This document shows positions 26,040-64,000 of a stretch of 64,000 bases of DNA, in pieces (position 1 is the first letter of the stretch; every line of letters begins with the position of its first letter). A program made the translations under genes and the position numbers. The notes below the pieces were generated by a model. The model worked only from the letters and a program-made list of their open reading frames with translations, searched no databases and was not told where the DNA came from. Source of the DNA: Eledone cirrhosa (Eukaryota); NCBI GenBank assembly GCA_964016885.1, contig OZ024741.1, positions 12,772,001 to 12,836,000 on the forward strand. Direction: 5' to 3'.

Positions 26040-27567
26040 TAGTGTGGTGTGCACAGCTCTACTGGACTGAGGCCCTCCGCCAGCTTCACAACACCCATTT
26101 CACCGGCCTTTATCTTCTGATCCCACCCCAGGCTACCAACATACCGTATCCTCAACCATTTGCCAACTCATCCGCTCCTCTCTCTTACCCCTTACTTCCA
26201 CTAATCTTATAGTACACACCCCTTTATACACCCACCATCTTCGTTTCCGCTTGAAACCCTCCTGGCCCCCTTAGTAACCGACCTCCCCTCCTACATCGAC
26301 GACACTAACCATGCTCTTCAATTATTTAACTCCTTCTCTTCTGGCCCCACCCACCGTCTCTTTACCATGGACATTAACTCTGTCTACACCATCATCCCTC
26401 ACGATGACGGCCTCTGTGCCCTACACCCTATCCTAGCACTTTTACTCTCCTCCACCATGCTCAGCTCCTTCTCACTTTCAATGTTTTTTTTTTCTTTTCA
26501 GGAGAGTTTTATCAACAGGTCTCTAGGGTAGCCATGGGATACAAGAGTGGGTCCTAACTACGCCAACTTATTCCTTAGCTACGTTTAGTCCTCGATCTCT
26601 TCTCAGTACACAGGACCGACCCTTCGGTGTCACTTCTCTCTCTCAATCAACAGCTCAACTCCTTTCTTTCCTTCGTCCAGTCATTTCATCCTGTCCTCAC
26701 CTTCACCACCTCTGTCTAAAACTATTTAGTTCAACCTCTCTCTCTCTCTACCTCCATCTTCTATAAGCTCACTGAATCCTACTCCTACCTCCACTTCACC
26801 TCCTCCCACCCACACCCTACCTTCAATTCCTCCGACTTTGTCGGCTCTGTAGCCAAAACCACAATTTCGAGACTCAGTCACAACACATGGCCTCCCGCTT
26901 CATCCAGCGTATATATATCCCCCACCCTGATCTAAGATGCCCTCACCTGCGCCCGTGAAACCGACCTATCACAGCTACCCACATCCGCCTAACTTTCTCT
27001 CTCACCTACCACCACATCACCCCACCTCTCCGGCGACATATTCTTCTTTGTTTCTGCACTCCCTATTCTGACCCCGTCACTTCAAGCTTCTTTCCAAACA
27101 CATCCATCGCCGCCTTTAAGCGTGCCCCTAATTTATGTGACCTCCTGGTACGCAGTTCCTTCCCTTCCTCTCTTAGGACTCCACCTGGCTCCCGTCCTTC
27201 TTCTTATCCCCGCTGTCACACCTGTCCTTTCATTTCTAACCTTATCACTCTCACAGACACTAACGGTTCTTTCGCCGTAGTCTATCCCCCCGCCCCCCAG
27301 TGTTCCCTTTGAGGGTACATCGGACAAACAGGCCGCTACTTGGCGGACTGTTTCGTCGAACACTTGAGGGACATACGATTCGGCATGTATACCCCCGTTG
27401 CTCGTCATTTCAGTTCCTCAGGCCTCTCATCCTTGCATGCCTCAGTCCTTGGTGTCCTTTTACATCAGGGAAAGATGGTCCCACGTACCAGGACTGAGCA
27501 GTGTCTGGTTTTCCGCCTTGGGTCCAGTTTCCTTAATGGACTCAACTCCTCTTCCCAATTTCTTTAA
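26040..27567 (+). pseudogene. Degenerate Penelope-like retroelement (RT plus GIY-YIG endonuclease)
   Basis: LFTMDINSVYTIIPHDDGL (26358), GEFYQQV..VAMG, NYANLF, SIFYKLTESYSYLHFTSSHP, then GYIGQTGR..EHLRDIR..PVARHF..EQCLVFRLG..GLN. Multiple frameshifts. Confidence 0.9.
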
Positions 27568-27814
27568 TCCTGCACATATAGGTTTGATCTTACTTCTATA
27601 CCCCTAGCCACTATCATATATATGTAAAGTGTAATTAATATATATTTATATATATATATATTATGTATAATAGATATTCCCTCTACTAAACAGTGGTGGT
27701 CATAATTGGACCCCGAAACCTTAGGTCGCGCATGCATGTTAAGTGTATGAAATTTCAATTATACTAAATATGTTCTCTTGCAATAGATTGGGCAATTTTG
27801 CTGTGTGCGCGCGC

Positions 27815-37842: not shown

Positions 37843-39280
37843 TGGGTGCATAAAAGATGTAGTGGGATCATGGGTAAGCTAACTAAGAACATAGATTTTA
37901 CATGTGGCCGGTGCTCTGGTGCAATAAGTAGCAGCAAGTGCCCACAAAAATACTAGCTCCTTCAACTGCGCAGAGGGTTCTATAGAAATAGTGGACAGCT
38001 TCCGTTACCTGGGTGACAAAATCAGCAGTGGGGGAGGGTGCTCTGAAAGTACAGTAGCTAGAGTCAGAACTGGATGGAAAAAGTTCAGAGAGCTTATACC
38101 ACTATTGGCCGCTAGAGGGTTCTCCCTAAAAATGAAAGGCAGGTTATACGATGCCTGCATACGAACAGCAATGCTGCATGGCAGTGAGACCTGGGCATTG
38201 TGTGCAGAGGATATACGCAGACTAGAGAGGAACGAAGCTTGCATGCTCCGCTGGATGTGCAATAGTAATATACGTGAACGGCAAAGCATAAACAAACTAA
38301 GGAAAAAATTAGAAATAAGAGGGATCAGATGTTGTTTACTCGAGAGAAGGCTACGTTGCTACGGTCACGTGATGCGCATGAAAGACGATAGCTGTATAAC
38401 AAAGTGCAGGGCAATAAAGATAGACGGTAGCCACGGAGTAGGCAGACCCAGAAAAACATGGGACGAGCTGATAAATTCCGACCTCACACGCTTACACCTC
38501 TCCAAGACAATGTCACTGGACCGAGACCTTTGGCGGTACTCAGTAATAGAGAAGACCCGCCTTACCTAAATACAAAGTAAAAACCTACTACAGTCAGTAG
38601 GCATCTCTATCAAAACACACCCCCGTCCCACCACCTCCACCCCATCCACACCGCCCCTTTCAATGTAAAGTTATGTTGGTCCCACAACATCCAGGCCGAA
38701 ACAAATGAGATCGTGTAGGTGTCACGACAAAAAAAACACACAGTCCACGCTGTAAATGTGGCCATGTAGGCAACACAGTAAAAACCTCCCAGCCCCACAC
38801 TGTAAATGTGGTTGGTGTTAGGAAGGGCATCCAACTGTAGAAAACCTGCCAGACAGTCCACGCTGTAATGTGGCCGTGTAGGCAACACGGTAAAAACCTC
38901 CCAGCCCCACACTGTAAATGTGGTTGGTGTTAGGAAGGGCATCCAGCTGTAGAAAACCCGCCAGACAGTCCACGCTGTAATGTGGCCGTGTAGGCAACAC
39001 GGTAAAAACCTCCCAGCCCCACACTGTAAATGTGGTTGGTGTTAGGAAGGGCATCCAGCTGTAGAAAACCCGCCAGACAGTCCACGCTGTAATGTGGCCG
39101 TGTAGGCAACACGGTAAAAACCTCCCAGCCCCACACTGTAAATGTGGTTGGTGTTAGGAAGGGCATCCAGCTGTAGAAAACCCGCCAGACAGTCCTATGC
39201 GAGCAAGACAATCACTCTTGCCTCAAGTGGGAAAACCCCCGTCCAAACCCATGCAAGCGTGGAACACGGACGTTAAACGT

Positions 39281-39324: not shown

Positions 39325-39644
39325 ATAGGAACGAGTAGGACCCTGACGGCTGAGCTCAAGCCGTTTCGACGGCTAATTCTGGACTAAATGCCGTCGAAAC
39401 TGCTTGAGCTCAGCCGTCAGGGTCCTACTCGTTCCTATTACCCACTCTACTACCCTAAGTATTGAGTACTTTGGTGCGTTATGGTCCACCTGGTTCCTTA
39501 TCACATTTCCTTCGTTATAAAATGTATATATATATATATAAAATATATATATATATAAAATGTATATATATATATATATATATAAAATGTATGTATATAT
39601 AATATAAAATGTATGCATATATATATATATATATAAATGTATAT

Positions 39645-39703
<59 letters not shown>

Positions 39704-39894
39704 CGAAGGAGATGTGGTAAGGAACCAAATGGACCATAACGCACCAGGGTACTCAATACTTAGGGTAGTAGAGTGGGAAATAGGAAAAAGTATGACCCCG
39801 ACGGCAGAGCTCAAGCCGTTTCGACGGCTATTTCTGGACTGAAATAGCCGTTGAAACGGTTGAGCTCTGCCGTCGGGGTCATACTTTTTCTTAT
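39325..39894. repeat. Two inverted copies of a hairpin-capped repeat end around a (TA)n tract
   Basis: Hairpins at 39325-39438 and 39780-39894. Unique arms 39437-39518 and 39700-39783 are reverse complements. Confidence 0.9.
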
Positions 39895-39906
39895 ATATAT
39901 ATATAT

Positions 39907-40655
39907 AAATACAATATTGGAGAAAGCTTTTTAGCGATACTCCGACCAAATTCCAAGTCACTCAACAAACAGTAGGAAATAAGTGATTATATTCCCAATT
40001 ATGTGTTCGGGGTGCTAACTAAAAGTATTGCGTGGAAAATTGGCTTTATTATTTCAAATGAGACATATCTAATATATCTCTTCCCAGACGGACGTCTCGT
40101 TTCATTATAGGATTCCTACAATTTGGGTGAAATTATCCCAATTTATGTAGGAGCTTGTATACCATCAATAGATATATATTCAAGTGGGCTCCTATAATTC
40201 ATCAGTGGGTGCCCCAATAATACTAATATTGATGATCTAACCAACATCAGCATTTAGCGATAATCACTTTCTGTGCCTGAGGTATCTGTCAGGTTGCCAG
40301 TCCAGCAGTTCTAAAGAAGTGCTCGAACTGATTCAAAAGATGAGGAAGTGAATTACCGCCAAAAAAAACAATACATGCGCGTGACAATGAACTCTGAAAG
40401 GAATTCAGGCCACGTGCTAAGAACTCAATTGGAAATTGAAAAAATATCTGTGTGTACAACATTTGATGACACACACAGATATTTTCTCGGGCAAAATAAC
40501 AGAATGAGATACAAGGAACAATCAATATTCATATATAAAAAATAAACAAAGAAATGCTAACCTTATACCAGGAATGTTTTTCAAATCTGCTGCGCCAAGA
40601 GTAAATAGATAAATACAATATCGGAGAAAGCTTTTTGGCGATACTCCGGCCAAAT
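39907..40655 (-). mobile_element. Terminally redundant 704 bp unit with a hammerhead (retrozyme or Penelope pLTR-like)
   Basis: 45 bp direct repeats at 39907-39951 and 40611-40655 (3 transitions). (TA)n flanks. Internal hammerhead. No long ORF. Confidence 0.75.
40083..40209 (-). ncRNA. Type I hammerhead ribozyme with branched long stem II
   Basis: ccca-CUGAUGA-AUUAUAGGA..(two internal hairpins)..UCCUAUAAU-GAAA-CG agacguc CG-UC-uggg. Fully canonical core and a perfect 9 bp stem II base. Confidence 0.88.
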
Positions 40656-40731
40656 ATATATATATATATATAATAAATCAGGAAAGAAGAGTGACAAGGT
40701 TTGCTATACAAAAAAGGTTTTTAATCTCATT

Positions 40732-54852: not shown

Positions 54853-57703
54853 GTAAGGAATATATATTGTACCATGTCTCTGGTACTGCGTGATCGAAGG
54901 TCCTCAGTGTAAGGTCTTTGTTATGTAGGGCTGTGTAAGGAATATATATAATGTACCATGTCTCTGGTACTGTGTGGTCTAAGGTCCTCAGTGTAAGGTC
55001 TTTGTTATGTAGGGCTGTGTAAGGAATATATATTGTACCATGTGGTCTAAGACCCACAGTGTAAGGTCTTTGTTATGTAGGGCTGTGTAAGGAATATATA
55101 TTGCACCATGTATCTGGTACTGTGTGGTCTAAGACCCTCAGTGTAAGGTCTTTGTTATGTAGGGCTGTGTAAGGAATATATATTGTACCATGTCTCTGGT
55201 ACTGTGTGGTCTAAGACCCTCAGTTTAAGGTCTCTGTTATGTAGGGCTGTGTAAGGAATATATATTGCACCATGTCTCTGGTACTGTGTGGTCTAAGGTC
55301 CTCAGTGCAACGTCTTTGTTATGTAGGGCTGTGTAAGGAATATATATTGTACCATGTCTCTGGTACTGTGTGGTCTAAGACCCTCCGTGTAAGGTCTTTG
55401 TTATGTAGGGCTGTGTAAGGAATATATATTGTACCATGTCTCTGGTACTGTGTGGTCTAAGGGCCTCAGTGTAAGGTCTTTGTTATGTAGGGCTGTGTAA
55501 GGAATATATATTGTACCATGTATCTGGTACTGTGTTGTCTAAGGGCCTCAGTGTAAGGTCTTTGTTATGTAGGGCTGTGTAAGGAATATATATTGTACCA
55601 TGTCTCTGATACTGTGTGGTCTAAGACCCTCCGTGTAAGGTCTTTGTTATGTAGGGCTGTGTAAGGAATATATATTGTACCATGTCTCTGGTACTGTGTG
55701 GTCTAAGACCCTCCGTGTAAGGTCTTTGTTATGTAGGGCTGTGTAAGGAATATATATTGTACCATGTCTCTGATACTGTGTGGTCTAAGGGCCTCAGTGT
55801 AAGGACTTTGTTATGTAGGGCTGTGTAAGAAATATATATTGTACCATGTCTCTGGTACTGTGTGGTCTAAGGGCCTCAGTGTAAGGTCTTTGTTATGTAG
55901 GGCTGTGTAAGGAATATATATTGTACCATGTCTCTGGTACTGTGTGGTCTAAGGGCCTCAGTGTAAGGTCTTTATGTAGGGCTGTGTAAGGAATATATAT
56001 TGTACCATGTCTCTGATACTGTGTGGTCTAAGGTCCTCAGTGTAAGGTCTTTGTTATGTAGGGCTGTGTAAGGAATATATATTGTACCATGTCTCTGGTA
56101 CTGTGTGGTCTAAGGGCCTCAGTGTAAGGTCTTTGTTATGTAGGGCTGTGTAAGGAATATATATTATACCATGTCTCTGGTACTATTGTGGTCTAAGGGC
56201 CTCAGTGTAAGGTCTTTGTTATGTAGGGCTGTGTAAGGAATATATATTGTACCATATCTCTGATACTGTGTGATCTAAGACCCTCAGTGTAAGGTCTTTG
56301 TTATGTAGGGCTGTGTAAGGAATATATATTGTACCATGTCTCTGATACTGTGTGATCTAAGGTCCTCAGTGTAAGGTCTTTGTTATGTAGGGCTGTGTAA
56401 GGAATATATATTGTACCATGTCTCTGATACTGTGTGATCTAAGGTCCTCAGAGTAAGGTCTTTGTTATGTAGGGCTGTGTAAGGAATATATATTGTACCA
56501 TGTCTCTGGTACTGTGTGGTCTAAGACCCTCCGTGTAAGGTCTTTGTTATGTAGGGCTGTGTAAGGAATATATATTGTACCATGTCTCTGATACTGTGTG
56601 ATCTAAGGTCCTCAGAGTAAGGTCTTTGTTATGTAGGGCTGTGTAAGGAATATATATTGTACCATGTCTCTGGTACTGTGTGGTCTAAGGTCCTCAGTGT
56701 AAGGTCTTTGTTATGTAGGGCTGTGTAAGGAATATATATTGTACCATGTCTCTGGTACTGTGTGGTCTAAGACCCTCAGTGTAAGGTCTTTGTTATGTAG
56801 GGCTGTGTAAGGAATATATATTGTACCATGTCTCTGGTACTGTGTGGTCTAAGGTCCTCAGTGTAAGGTCTTTGTTATGTAGGGCTGTGTAAGGAATATA
56901 TATTGTACCATGTCTCTGATACTGTGTGGTCTAAGACCCTCAGTTTAAGGTCTCTGTTATATAGGGCTGTGTAAGGAATATATATTGTACCATGTCTCTG
57001 GTACTGTGTGGTCTAAGACCCTCAGTGTAAGGTCTTTGTTATGTAGGGCTGTGTAAGGAATATATATTGCACCATGTCTCTGGTACTGTGTGGTCTAAGG
57101 GCCTCAGTGTAAGGTCTTTGTTATGTAGGGCTGTGTAAGGAATATATATTGTACCATGTCTCTGATACTGTGTGGTCTAAGACCCTCAGTGTAAGGTCTT
57201 TGTTATGTAGGGCTGTGTAAGGAATATATATTGTACCATGTCTCTGATACTGTGTGGTCTAAGGGCCTCAGTGTAAGGTCTTTGTTATGTAGGGCTGTGT
57301 AAGGAATATATATTGTACCATGTCTCTGGTACTGTGTGGTCTAAGACCCACAGTGTAAGGTCTTTGTTATGTAGGGCTGTGTAAGGAATATATATTGCAC
57401 CATGTCTCTGGTACTGTGTGGTCTAAGGGCCTCAGTGTAAGGTCTTTGTTATGTAGGGCTGTGTAAGGAATATATATTGTACCATGTCTCTGGTACTGTG
57501 TGGTCTAAGACCCTCAGTGTAAGGTCTTTGTTATGTAGGGCTGTGTAAGGAATATATATTGCACCATGTCTCTGGTACTGTGTGGTCTAAGACCCTCAGT
57601 GTAAGGTCTTTGTTATGTAGGGCTGTGTAAGGAATATATATTGTACCATGTCTCTGATACTGTGTGGTCTAAGACCCTCAGTGTAAGGTCTTTGTTATGT
57701 AGG
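54853..57703. repeat. 82 bp tandem array, ~35 copies
   Basis: GTAAGGAATATATATTG recurs every 82 bp (e.g. 55251, 55333). Confidence 0.97.
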
Positions 57704-57757
57704 GTTTTTTGTTGATAGGATTATGTAATCATTGTTGAATAGGGTTGTGTAAGGAGA

Positions 57758-60176: not shown

Positions 60177-63100
60177 AGACAAAAAGCACCCAGTCCACAC
60201 TGTAAAGCAGTCATGTAGGTGTCACGACAAAAAGTGCTCAGTCCACACTGCAAAGTGGTCATGGAGATCTCATGACAAAAAGCACCCAGTCCACACTGTA
60301 AAGTGGTCATGTAGGTGTCATGACAAAGGGCACCCAGTCCACACTGTAAAGTGGTCATGTAGGTGTCATGACAAAAGGCACTCAGTCCATACTGTAAAGT
60401 GGTCATGTAGGTGTCATGACAAAAAGCACCCAATCCACACTGTAAAGTGGTCATGTAGGTGTCATGACAAAAAAGTGCCCAGTCTACACTGTAAAGTGGT
60501 CATATAGGTGTCATGACAAAAAGCACCCAGTCCACACTGTGAAGTGGTCATGTAGGTGTCATGACAAAAAGCACCCAGTCCACACTGTAAAGTGGTCATG
60601 TAGGTGTCATGACAAAAAGCACCCAGTCCACACAGTAAAGTGGTCATGTAGGTATCACGACAAAAGGCACCCAGTCCATATTGTAAAGTGGTCATGGAGG
60701 TGTCACGACAAGAGGCACCCAGTCCACAATGTAAAGTGGTCATGTAGGTGTCATGACAAAAAGCACCCAGTCCACACTGTAAAGTGGTCATGTAGGTGTC
60801 ATGATAAAAGGCACTCAGTCCAAACTGTAAAGTGGTCATGTAGGTGTCATGACAAAAAGCACCCAATCCACACTGTAAAGTTGTCATGTAGGTGTCATGA
60901 CAAAAAGCACCCAGTCCACACTGTAAAGTGGTCATGTAGGTGTCATGACAAAAAGCACCCAGTCCACACTGTAAAGTGGTCATGTAGGTGTCATGACAAA
61001 AAGCACCCAGTCCACACTGTAAAGTGGTCATGTAGGTGTCATGACAAAAAAGTGCCCAGTCTACACTGTAAAGTGTTCATATAGGTGTCATGACAAAAAG
61101 CACCCAGTCCACACTGTGAAGTGGTCATGTAGGTGTCATGACAAAAAGCACCCAGTCCACACTGTAAAGAGGTCATATAAGTGTCATGACAAAAAGCACC
61201 CAGTCCACTCTGTAAAGTGGTCATATAGGTGTCATGACAAAAAGCAACCAGGCCACAGTGTAAAGTGGTCATGTAGGTGTCATGACAAAAGGCACCCAGT
61301 CCACACTGTAAAGTGGTCATATAGGTGTCATGACAAAAAGCACCCAATCCACACTGTAAAGTGGTCATGTAGGTGTCTTGACAAAAGGCACCCAGTCCAC
61401 ACTGTAAAGTGGTCATGTAGGTGTCATGACAAAAAGCACCCAGTCCACACTGTAAAGTGGTCATGTAGGTATCATGAAGAAAAGCACCCAATCCACACTG
61501 TAAAGTGGTCATGTAGGTGTCATGACAAAAAGCACCCAGTCCACACTGTAAAGTGGTCATGTAGGTGTCATGACAAAAAGCACCCAGTCCACACTGTAAA
61601 GTGGTCATGTAGGTATCATGACGAAAAGCACCCAATCCACACTGTAAAGTGGTCATGTAGGTGTCATGACAAAAGGCACCCAGTCCACACTGTAAAGTGG
61701 TCATGTAGGTGTCATGACAAAAGGCACCCAGTCCACACTGTAAAGTGGTCATGTAGGTGTCATGACAAAAGGCATCCAGCCCACACTGTAAAGTGGTCAT
61801 ATAGGTGTCATGACAAAAAGCACCCAGTCCACACTGTAAAGTGGTTATCTAGGCGTCATGACAAAAAGTGCCCAGTCTACATTGTAAAGTGGTCATGTAG
61901 GTGTCAAGACAAAAAGCACCCAGTCCACACTGTAAAGTGGTCATGGAGGTGTCATGACAAAAAGCACCCAGTCCACAGTGTAAAGTGGTCATGTAGGTGT
62001 CATGACAAAAAGCACCCAGTCCACACTGTAAAGTGGTCATGTAGGTATCATGACGAAAAGCACCCAATCCACACTGTAAAGTGGTCATGTAGGTGTCATG
62101 ACAAAAAAGTGCCCAGTCTACACTGTAAAGTGGTCATATAGGTGTCATGACAAAAAGCACCCAGTCCACACTGTGAAGTGGTCATGTAGGTGTCATGACA
62201 AAAAGCACCCAGTCCACACTGTGAAGTGGTCATGTAGGTGCCATGACAAAAAGCACCCAGTCCACACTGTAAAGTGGTCATGTAGGTGTCATGACAAAAA
62301 GCACCCAGTCCACACAGTAAAGTGGTCATGTAGGTATCACGACAAAAGGCACCCAGTCCATATTGTAAAGTGGTCATGGAGGTGTCACGACAAGAGGCAC
62401 CCAGTCCACATTGTAAAGTGGTCATGTAGGTGTCATGACAAAAAGCACCCAGTCCACACTGTAAAGTGGTCATGTAGGTGTCATGATAAAAGGCACTCAG
62501 TCCAAACTGTAAAGTGGTCATGTAGGTGTCATGACAAAAAGCACCCAATCCACACTGTAAAGTTGTCATGTAGGTGTCATGACAAAAAGCACCCAGTCCA
62601 CACTGTAAAGTGGTCATGTAGGTGTCATGACAAAAAGCACCCAGTCCACACTGTAAAGTGGTCATGTAGGTGTCATGACAAAAAGCACCCAGTCCACACT
62701 GTAAAGTGGTCATGTAGGTGTCATGACAAAAAAGTGCCCAGTCTACACTGTAAAGTGTTCATATAGGTGTCATGACAAAAAGCACCCAGTCCACACTGTG
62801 AAGTGGTCATGTAGGTGTCATGACAAAAAGCACCCAGTCCACACTGTAAAGAGGTTATATAAGTGTCATGACAAAAAGCACCCAGTCCACTCTGTAAAGT
62901 GGTCATGTAGGTGTCATGACAAAAAGCACCCAGGCCACAGTGTAAAGTGGTCATGTAGGTGTCATGACAAAAGGCACCCAGTCCACACTGTAAAGTGGTC
63001 ATATAGGTGTCATGACAAAAAGCACCCAATCCACACTGTAAAGTGGTCATGTAGGTGTCTTGACAAAAGGCACCCAGTCCAGACTGTAAAGTGGTCATGT

Positions 63101-64000
63101 AGGTGTCATGACAAAAAGCACCCAGTCCACACTGTAAAGTGGTCATGTAGGTATCATGAAGAAAAGCACCCAATCCACACTGTAAAGTGGTCATGTAGGT
63201 GTCATGACAAAAAGCACCCAATCCACACTGTAAAGTGGTCATGTAGGTATCATGACGAAAAGCACCCAATCCACACTGTAAAGTGGTCATGTAGGTGTCA
63301 TGACAAAAGGCACCCAGTCCACACTGTAAAGTGGTCATGTAGGTGTCATGACAAAAGGCACCCAGTCCACACTGTAAAGTGGTCATGTAGGTGTCATGAC
63401 AAAAGGCATCCAGCCCACACTGTAAAGTGGTCATATAGGTGTCATGACAAAAAGCACCCAGTCCACACTGTAAAGTGGTTATCTAGGCGTCATGACAAAA
63501 AGTGCCCAGTCTACATTGTAAAGTGGTCATGTAGGTGTCAAGACAAAAAGCACCCAGTCCACACTGTAAAGTGGTCATGGAGGTGTCATGACAAAAAGCA
63601 CCCAGTCCACAGTGTAAAGTGGTCATGTAGGTGTCATGACAAAAAGCACCCAGTCCACACTGTAAAGTGGTCATGTAGGTATCATGACGAAAAGCACCCA
63701 ATCCACACTGTAAAGTGGTCATGTAGGTGTCATGACAAAAGGCACCCAGTCTACACTGTAAAGTGGTCATGTAGGTGTCATGACAAAAGGTACCCAGTCC
63801 ACACTGTAAAGTGGTCATGTAGGTGTCATGACAAAAAAGTGCCCAGTCTACACTGTAAAGTGGTCATGTAGGTGTCATGACAAAAGGCACCCAGTCCACA
63901 CTGTGAAGTGGTCATGTAGGTGTCAGGACAAAAAGCACTCAGTCCACACTGTAAAGTGGTCATGTAGGTGTCATGACAAAAGCCACCCAGTCCACACTGT
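60177..64000. repeat. 48 bp satellite (CATGACAAAAAGCACCCAGTCCACACTGTAAAGTGGTCATGTAGGTGT) with ~1.63-1.68 kb higher-order period; runs off the window
   Basis: Variant GTTATCTAGGCG recurs 1634 bp apart. ORF-track duplicates at 60462/62096 and 61039/62721. Confidence 0.97.

Follow-up and report, generated by a model that had tools for sequence, protein, structure and literature searches.

The window, the 64,000-nucleotide stretch of the Eledone cirrhosa genome analyzed here, contains at positions 39907 to 40655 an insertion of 749 bp that is read on the minus strand. It comprises a complete non-coding monomer of 704 bp (39907..40610), which carries 12 substitutions with respect to the family majority, and a second, 5'-truncated unit of 45 bp (40611..40655; q660-704), in which copying likely stopped. 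Monomer positions are numbered along the minus strand from q1 (40610) to q704 (39907). A preliminary description of this DNA had pointed to 45-bp direct repeats 704 bp apart, and the segments 39907-39951 and 40611-40655 indeed show this spacing, with 3 mismatches in 45 positions (93.3% identity). The 45 bp are element sequence in all copies, so that a target-site duplication of this length was rejected; as had been stated, the repeat is neither such a duplication nor host (TA)n. The terminal redundancy that had been proposed is, however, not constant among copies but the remnant of a truncated second unit. Because the 3' end is fixed across the sampled family and the 5' ends are variable, some of them lying in a second unit, the window copy is a 1.06-unit, head-to-tail, 5'-truncated insertion without a terminal repeat. 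It holds one hammerhead and is therefore unable to release a monomer itself, which makes it a daughter copy.

The insertion is bordered by (TA)n on both sides, at 40654..40672 at the 5' junction and at 39892..39906 at the 3' end, where the target microsatellite is itself the end of an adjoining repeat. The unit has a GC content of 36%, and its folding as a whole gives a z-score of -8.0 (0 of 20 shuffles). No long open reading frame was found inside it, as previously reported; the longest stop-to-stop frames wholly contained in the unit span 79 and 76 aa. A hairpin on the minus strand (39918..39944), placed 11 nt short of the fixed 3' end, is a candidate signal for the initiation of reverse transcription. 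In the full unit one of its closing pairs has mutated; the 45-bp piece has kept the outer stem (40622-40648). A different repeat, flanked by (TA)n and with long inverted arms in its interior, is present in two copies at 39325-39519 and 39703-39890. It resembles a 3' fragment of a Penelope-like element (PLE) with a 5' inversion, and one of the copies has the TA tail into which the unit is inserted. The window also contains, on the plus strand at 26200-27570, the decayed relic of a Penelope-like RT-endonuclease with weak tblastn matches at 26229-26812, as well as large satellite arrays (1-21230, 38740-39195, 55041-57704 and 60178-64000) with periods of 24, 112, 82 and 48 bp.

A type I hammerhead ribozyme lies on the minus strand at 40083..40209, in the position given by the preliminary description. 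Between 40209 and 40083 we could place a helix I of 4 bp (CCCA/UGGG), the core motifs CUGAUGA (40205-40199) and GAAA (40103-40100), a helix III of 3 bp with a palindromic loop, and the GUC, with a predicted cut between 40087 and 40086, that is, after q524 and where the cleavage site had been anticipated. The motif had been called fully canonical, a view that the details contradict. Pair 10.1-11.1 is A-U instead of G-C, helix III is short, and the 9-bp helix II (40104..40198) harbors a 77-nt insert of two hairpins that forms a three-way junction. Scanned against Rfam, the window and, at E<=10, the unit alone gave no hammerhead family and just microsatellite-driven miRNA noise, probably because of the long insert in helix II.

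The genome contains sister families with a common architecture and 68-80% identity to the unit (30 loci each), namely family B (about 738 bp; 3832 candidates) and families C/D (about 693 bp; 3341 candidates), although the candidate sets of the two may overlap. Of 122 aligned copies, 112 have kept the hammerhead core, and loop III is palindromic or near-palindromic in each family, as is helix III in the hammerheads described for PLEs (PMC4209133). At pair 10.1-11.1 the sister families have U-U, like the axolotl motif HHR_Amex2 at the base of its helix II (PMC7229834), in place of the A-U of the window family. Both sides have changed in 5 of 28 predicted pairs of helix II and its insert, a result matched by 2 of 500 shuffles and not by slid controls, which gave 0-1 such pairs; the alignment consists of five related sequences and thus lends support to the pairing but does not prove it. 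Compensatory changes between families are likewise found in helix I and in the 3'-terminal hairpin. Compensatory changes, core retention and the A-U or U-U pair together indicate a ribozyme that is conserved yet non-canonical. Based on this pair, on an active fold predicted to lie 8 kcal/mol above the local minimum and on a helix III self-dimer predicted at -14.7 kcal/mol, the ribozyme is probably weak and dimer-assisted, a property it would share with PLE and amphibian motifs as these are described (PMC4209133, PMC7229834). A second CUGAUGA-like word is present about 70 nt before the ribozyme, at q337-344 (about 40267-40274 in the window), in one subfamily of the window family (family A) and in families C/D; no GAAA partner was seen for it.

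The family is abundant and dispersed. An exact 28-mer of its 3' end has 863 matches in the 3.0-Gb genome (control, 0), and two genome searches for the family returned 2099 candidates and 3153 candidates; the best full-length copies among the 3153 are 94-97% identical. The first 100 of the 863 matches, on contig C1, correspond to 88 loci, which after removal of two duplicates and one rearranged locus constitute the sample of 85 insertions. In all but one of these the 3' end is q704, and a search with the whole unit as query gave the same fixed end. By contrast with this single 3' end, the 5' ends are spread across the whole unit, with a median length of 455 bp. Of 84 insertions, 81 have a (TA)n stretch beyond the 3' end and 63 have one before the 5' end. 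Target-site duplications of non-LTR retrozymes, where they occur, are expected to exceed 4 bp. Informative matches of 10-20 bp, candidate target-site duplications, were found in 7 of 84 insertions, with 2.9 expected from shuffled pairs; any in the window copy would be hidden by (TA)n.

Seventeen of the 85 insertions extend beyond the junction into another unit, none into an ORF, so that the copies are not all 3' ends attached to a Penelope ORF. In other copies the second-unit remnant may be missing or may amount to several whole units; arrays of 4.7 and about 5.4 units were found, and 6 of the 85 insertions carry at least two hammerheads by hand count. Tandem copies had been expected and are present. 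Circularly permuted copies, equally expected, were not seen, as the copies share one 3' end and depart from it at a few 3'-truncated or 3'-extended loci (L006, L110 and L139). A fixed 3' end, 5' truncation, partial tandems and a microsatellite target together constitute the insertion pattern of PLEs. Two loci, L028 and L258, show later duplication or rearrangement in local tandem arrays. Three contig sets of one sample, of unspecified kind, contain the family with a depth that drops from the 3' to the 5' end and are uninformative on expression or circles.

The 5' ends are not evenly distributed. A pile-up at the predicted cut was first spotted in earlier copy alignments and then tested in the 85-insertion sample, with L005 and L017 common to both. 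Twelve ends fall in q522-540 against 3.3 expected (p = 1.6e-4), a count that a TA-like stretch at q534 could raise, and none falls in q503-521, where 3.0 are expected; a comparable TA-like stretch at q430-448 shows no excess (3 ends against 3.0). Reading through the cut is observed in 64 of 74 first passes, and about one pass in eight stops just past it. A genome-wide pattern that leaves out ends from q534 on gave, among the matches listed (100 of 371 rows), 28 places, which were reduced to 26 ends by discarding one duplicate and one family-C read-through. Among these matches, q525-532 contains 18 of the ends and q509-524 the other 8 (p = 2e-4), and the modal end is exactly q525 (6 of 26), bearing in mind that the gap limit of the pattern mildly favors downstream ends and that a flanking T can move an end by one base. 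Ends are also overcounted, through TA/AG microhomology, both at q530-534 and at the AT-rich unit junction. In family B, a hand tally of the matches listed (100 of 113 rows, or 21 places, one of which was dropped for an internal deletion) places 18 of 20 ends at or after the cut, half of them at TA-like positions. That 5' ends are in excess immediately 3' of the cut suggests that the ribozyme cuts in the living cell; most simply, part of the templates would have possessed a 5' end made by the ribozyme. One other 19-base interval, q106-124 (40487-40505 in the window), showed a ratio higher than that at the cut, on fewer ends (6 of 85, ratio 4.8, p = 0.002 uncorrected); this cluster could be a transcription start or noise.

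The nature of the copied RNA can be approached through copies longer than one unit. The preliminary description had proposed reverse transcription around a circle of about 704 nt, a route that would predict the approximately twofold excess of 5' ends seen near one full unit, defined as 10 bases before to 50 after it. The ends observed and expected are 7 and 2.5 in family A (85 loci), 9 and 4.3 in family B (27 of 30 loci), and 4 and 2.5 in families C/D (25 of 30 loci), where the expectations were derived by hand, the excess was noticed post hoc and the junction is AT-rich; the values are given per family because the baselines differ and pooled ratios were not used. Also in favor of a circle, with one template per array, neighboring units of an array carry the same base at 68 of 103 recurrent variant sites, in comparison with 12% for random pairs, and 27 instances of a rare variant common to adjacent units were found. 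They differ at the remaining 35 of 103 sites, three of which are linked in L032, indicating that not every array derives from one identical monomer. In a test that included 46 junction-crossing loci of 131, later passes ended at the cut in 5 of 41 cases at risk against 1.7 expected (p = 0.03), which argues against a pure closed monomer circle, since such a template would not give these ends. Template jumping might be betrayed by variant linkage that breaks at the cut site, but inspection of the linked variants revealed no clear pattern. A mixture of circles and partly cleaved multimers is the most likely source of templates.

The genome is rich in the machinery on which such an element might depend. 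It contains 10,597 GIY-YIG candidates, among them long frames with RT, CxxC linker and GIY-YIG. We compared 50 of these loci, drawn from 150 listed and representing about six PLE families. In several PLE families the element terminates at (TA)n, 75-200 nt beyond a hammerhead or a core resembling one, as compared with 180 nt from the cut to the fixed 3' end in the retrozyme unit. No convincing blastn or tblastn match and no coding remnant were found between the unit and six Neptune-type PLE families, and a motif apparently shared with the 3' ends of four families could not be distinguished from shuffled controls (all p > 0.1 in 36 comparisons). The sole DNA similarity among the PLE loci compared is a separate insertion in L191. 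At L257:666-3560 (contig C4, about 79.89 Mb), 1 of the 30 family-C/D loci, a family-D unit is joined, both in the same sense, with a Neptune-type PLE that is truncated at its 5' end, and the last 78 bp of the unit are absent from the 8 kb read; this is possibly a template-switch chimera, and it could also be an insertion with a deletion. An abundant PLE family (L148, L150, L152, L167, L171 and L193) has the hammerhead-like core UUGAUAA instead of CUGAUGA; it ends in a hairpin at the 3' terminus, and (TA)n is followed by a tail in some cases. Type I hammerheads of several unrelated families also occur, in the flanks of many loci, for example L067, L080, L085, L113, L117 and L120.

On the basis of these data, the family is a newly found non-LTR retrozyme, that is, a non-autonomous Penelope-like element, and we hold its membership of this class to be very probable. 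The preliminary description had called the unit retrozyme-like, which agrees with a non-coding, hammerhead-bearing, head-to-tail retroelement of this kind, and had offered a partially tandem Penelope pLTR as the alternative. The two are hardly separate, since animal retrozymes have been proposed as non-autonomous derivatives of PLEs, with units of 51-972 bp that include the 704 nt found here (bioRxiv 10.64898/2026.07.22.740005). An autonomous EN+ PLE was rejected, as the unit lacks an RT or GIY-YIG ORF and the longer copies sampled enter another unit. The unit might still be the pseudo-LTR or 3' UTR of an autonomous PLE whose ORF-bearing copies were not sampled: PLE 3' ends in this genome have the same geometry, with a hammerhead followed by a fixed end at (TA)n, and the loci compared are few with respect to all candidates. 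We nevertheless regard this as improbable, considering that all over-length copies sampled run into another unit, likewise in families B and C/D, and that neither a coding remnant nor DNA similarity to the PLE loci compared was detected apart from the insertion in L191. Even less credible is that the unit is a satellite or a Helitron-like or MITE-like element, all of them repeats of the DNA level, or that a target-site duplication of 45 bp flanks a chance ribozyme-like motif. Local tandem arrays do exist, some of them duplicated or rearranged later, but the one-sided truncation pattern already contradicts such an origin, and dispersed copies with one fixed end, graded 5' truncation and no terminal inverted repeats, together with a covarying conserved ribozyme at whose cut the ends gather, also argue against it.

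The alternative of most weight concerns the template. The same non-autonomous PLE-like element could have been copied solely from linear multimers, uncleaved or partly cleaved, or by template jumps at cut ends, with no circles involved. Later passes end at the cut at a rate similar to that of first passes (16 of 91), adjacent units in L032 show linked differences, and the ribozyme fold is predicted to be weak; moreover, young source arrays would also yield units that share variants, and in vitro the anole PLE is reported to have used mainly unprocessed RNA (PMC11167929). Some of the data are fitted better by partly cleaved linear multimers than by the circle originally proposed. Against this stand the end excess near one full unit in three families and the circles documented for the class in other animals (PMC7229834). 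Arrays with an internal promoter should in addition shorten in each generation unless regenerated. Copying from linear multimers only is for these reasons a tentative explanation, which we consider possible and not favored, and the preliminary interpretation as a whole is partly supported.

We favor, with a probability of about 0.55, a non-coding hammerhead repeat whose fixed 3' end lies in (TA)n and which is probably copied in trans by a Neptune-type PLE RT-endonuclease from RNA likely including ribozyme-made circles. Arrays with at least two hammerheads would be transcribed, and the weak, probably dimer-assisted ribozyme would cut a minority of sites to give linear pieces, with some monomers being closed into circles of about 706 nt. 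After nicking (TA)n, the PLE protein would start reverse transcription at an internal position of the RNA, immediately beyond the terminal hairpin and 180 nt to the 3' side of the cut. Copying would pass the ribozyme site, whether uncut or re-ligated, and then the unit junction, with random stops at about 0.2% per base that would be commoner at the cut 5' end and after about one turn. The position of the fixed 3' end far from the cut is explained by internal initiation beside a stem-loop at an AT-rich target, as described for the anole PLE Poseidon_Ac, for which ribozyme mutants are reported to have no effect on insertion in vitro (PMC11167929). A stronger version of this scheme, which we consider rather unlikely, holds that the copies are a fossil record in which the hammerhead cuts in the germ line and Neptune-type PLEs roll round RNA circles of about 700 nt from an internal start, the 77-nt three-way junction of helix II being a new, tuned-down architecture that leaves most templates intact.

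Comparison with non-LTR retrozymes reveals many shared features, including non-coding units with a GC content under 50% and strong self-pairing, one type I hammerhead per unit, head-to-tail copies besides dispersed monomers, and co-occurrence with PLEs. The family differs in its monomer of 693-738 bp, compared with 170-400 nt (PMC7229834), in copies that are mostly sub-unit, 5'-truncated and dispersed with one fixed 3' end, and in the three-way-junction insert of helix II. Circles have been shown for the retrozymes of coral, mussel and axolotl (PMC7229834); those of the family described here are putative. With EN+ PLEs it has in common partial-tandem insertions, 5' truncation and AT-rich or (TA)n targets (PMC11167929; for Neptune, PMC8557442), as well as a fixed 3' end downstream of a hammerhead and beside a stem-loop; it lacks the ORF that they have and could not be linked by sequence to any of the six PLE families compared. 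The 3' ends of non-autonomous Chlamys elements, MRC1 among them, are generally similar to those of the autonomous partner, while no partner was matched here, and most Chlamys elements have no canonical hammerhead, in contrast to the conserved ribozyme of this family (PMC8557442).

The dependence of retrozymes on PLEs was proposed in 2020 and received phylogenetic support in a 2026 preprint (10.64898/2026.07.22.740005), and the role of the hammerhead in EN+ PLEs has been described as unclear (PMC8557442). In the in vitro study of Poseidon_Ac, cleavage was reportedly not needed and no reads starting or ending at the cut are reported (PMC11167929), in contrast to the 5' ends that gather there in this family. 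No account of such a pile-up was found in the freely accessible literature searched, and related families may already be listed with the 2026 preprint. The class itself is already known, and what this family adds is mechanistic, arising from the footprint at the cut site and the unusual helix II. Its many young, randomly truncated copies provide a readout of ribozyme cleavage versus read-through, and the same analysis of ends is applicable to any retrozyme or PLE family.
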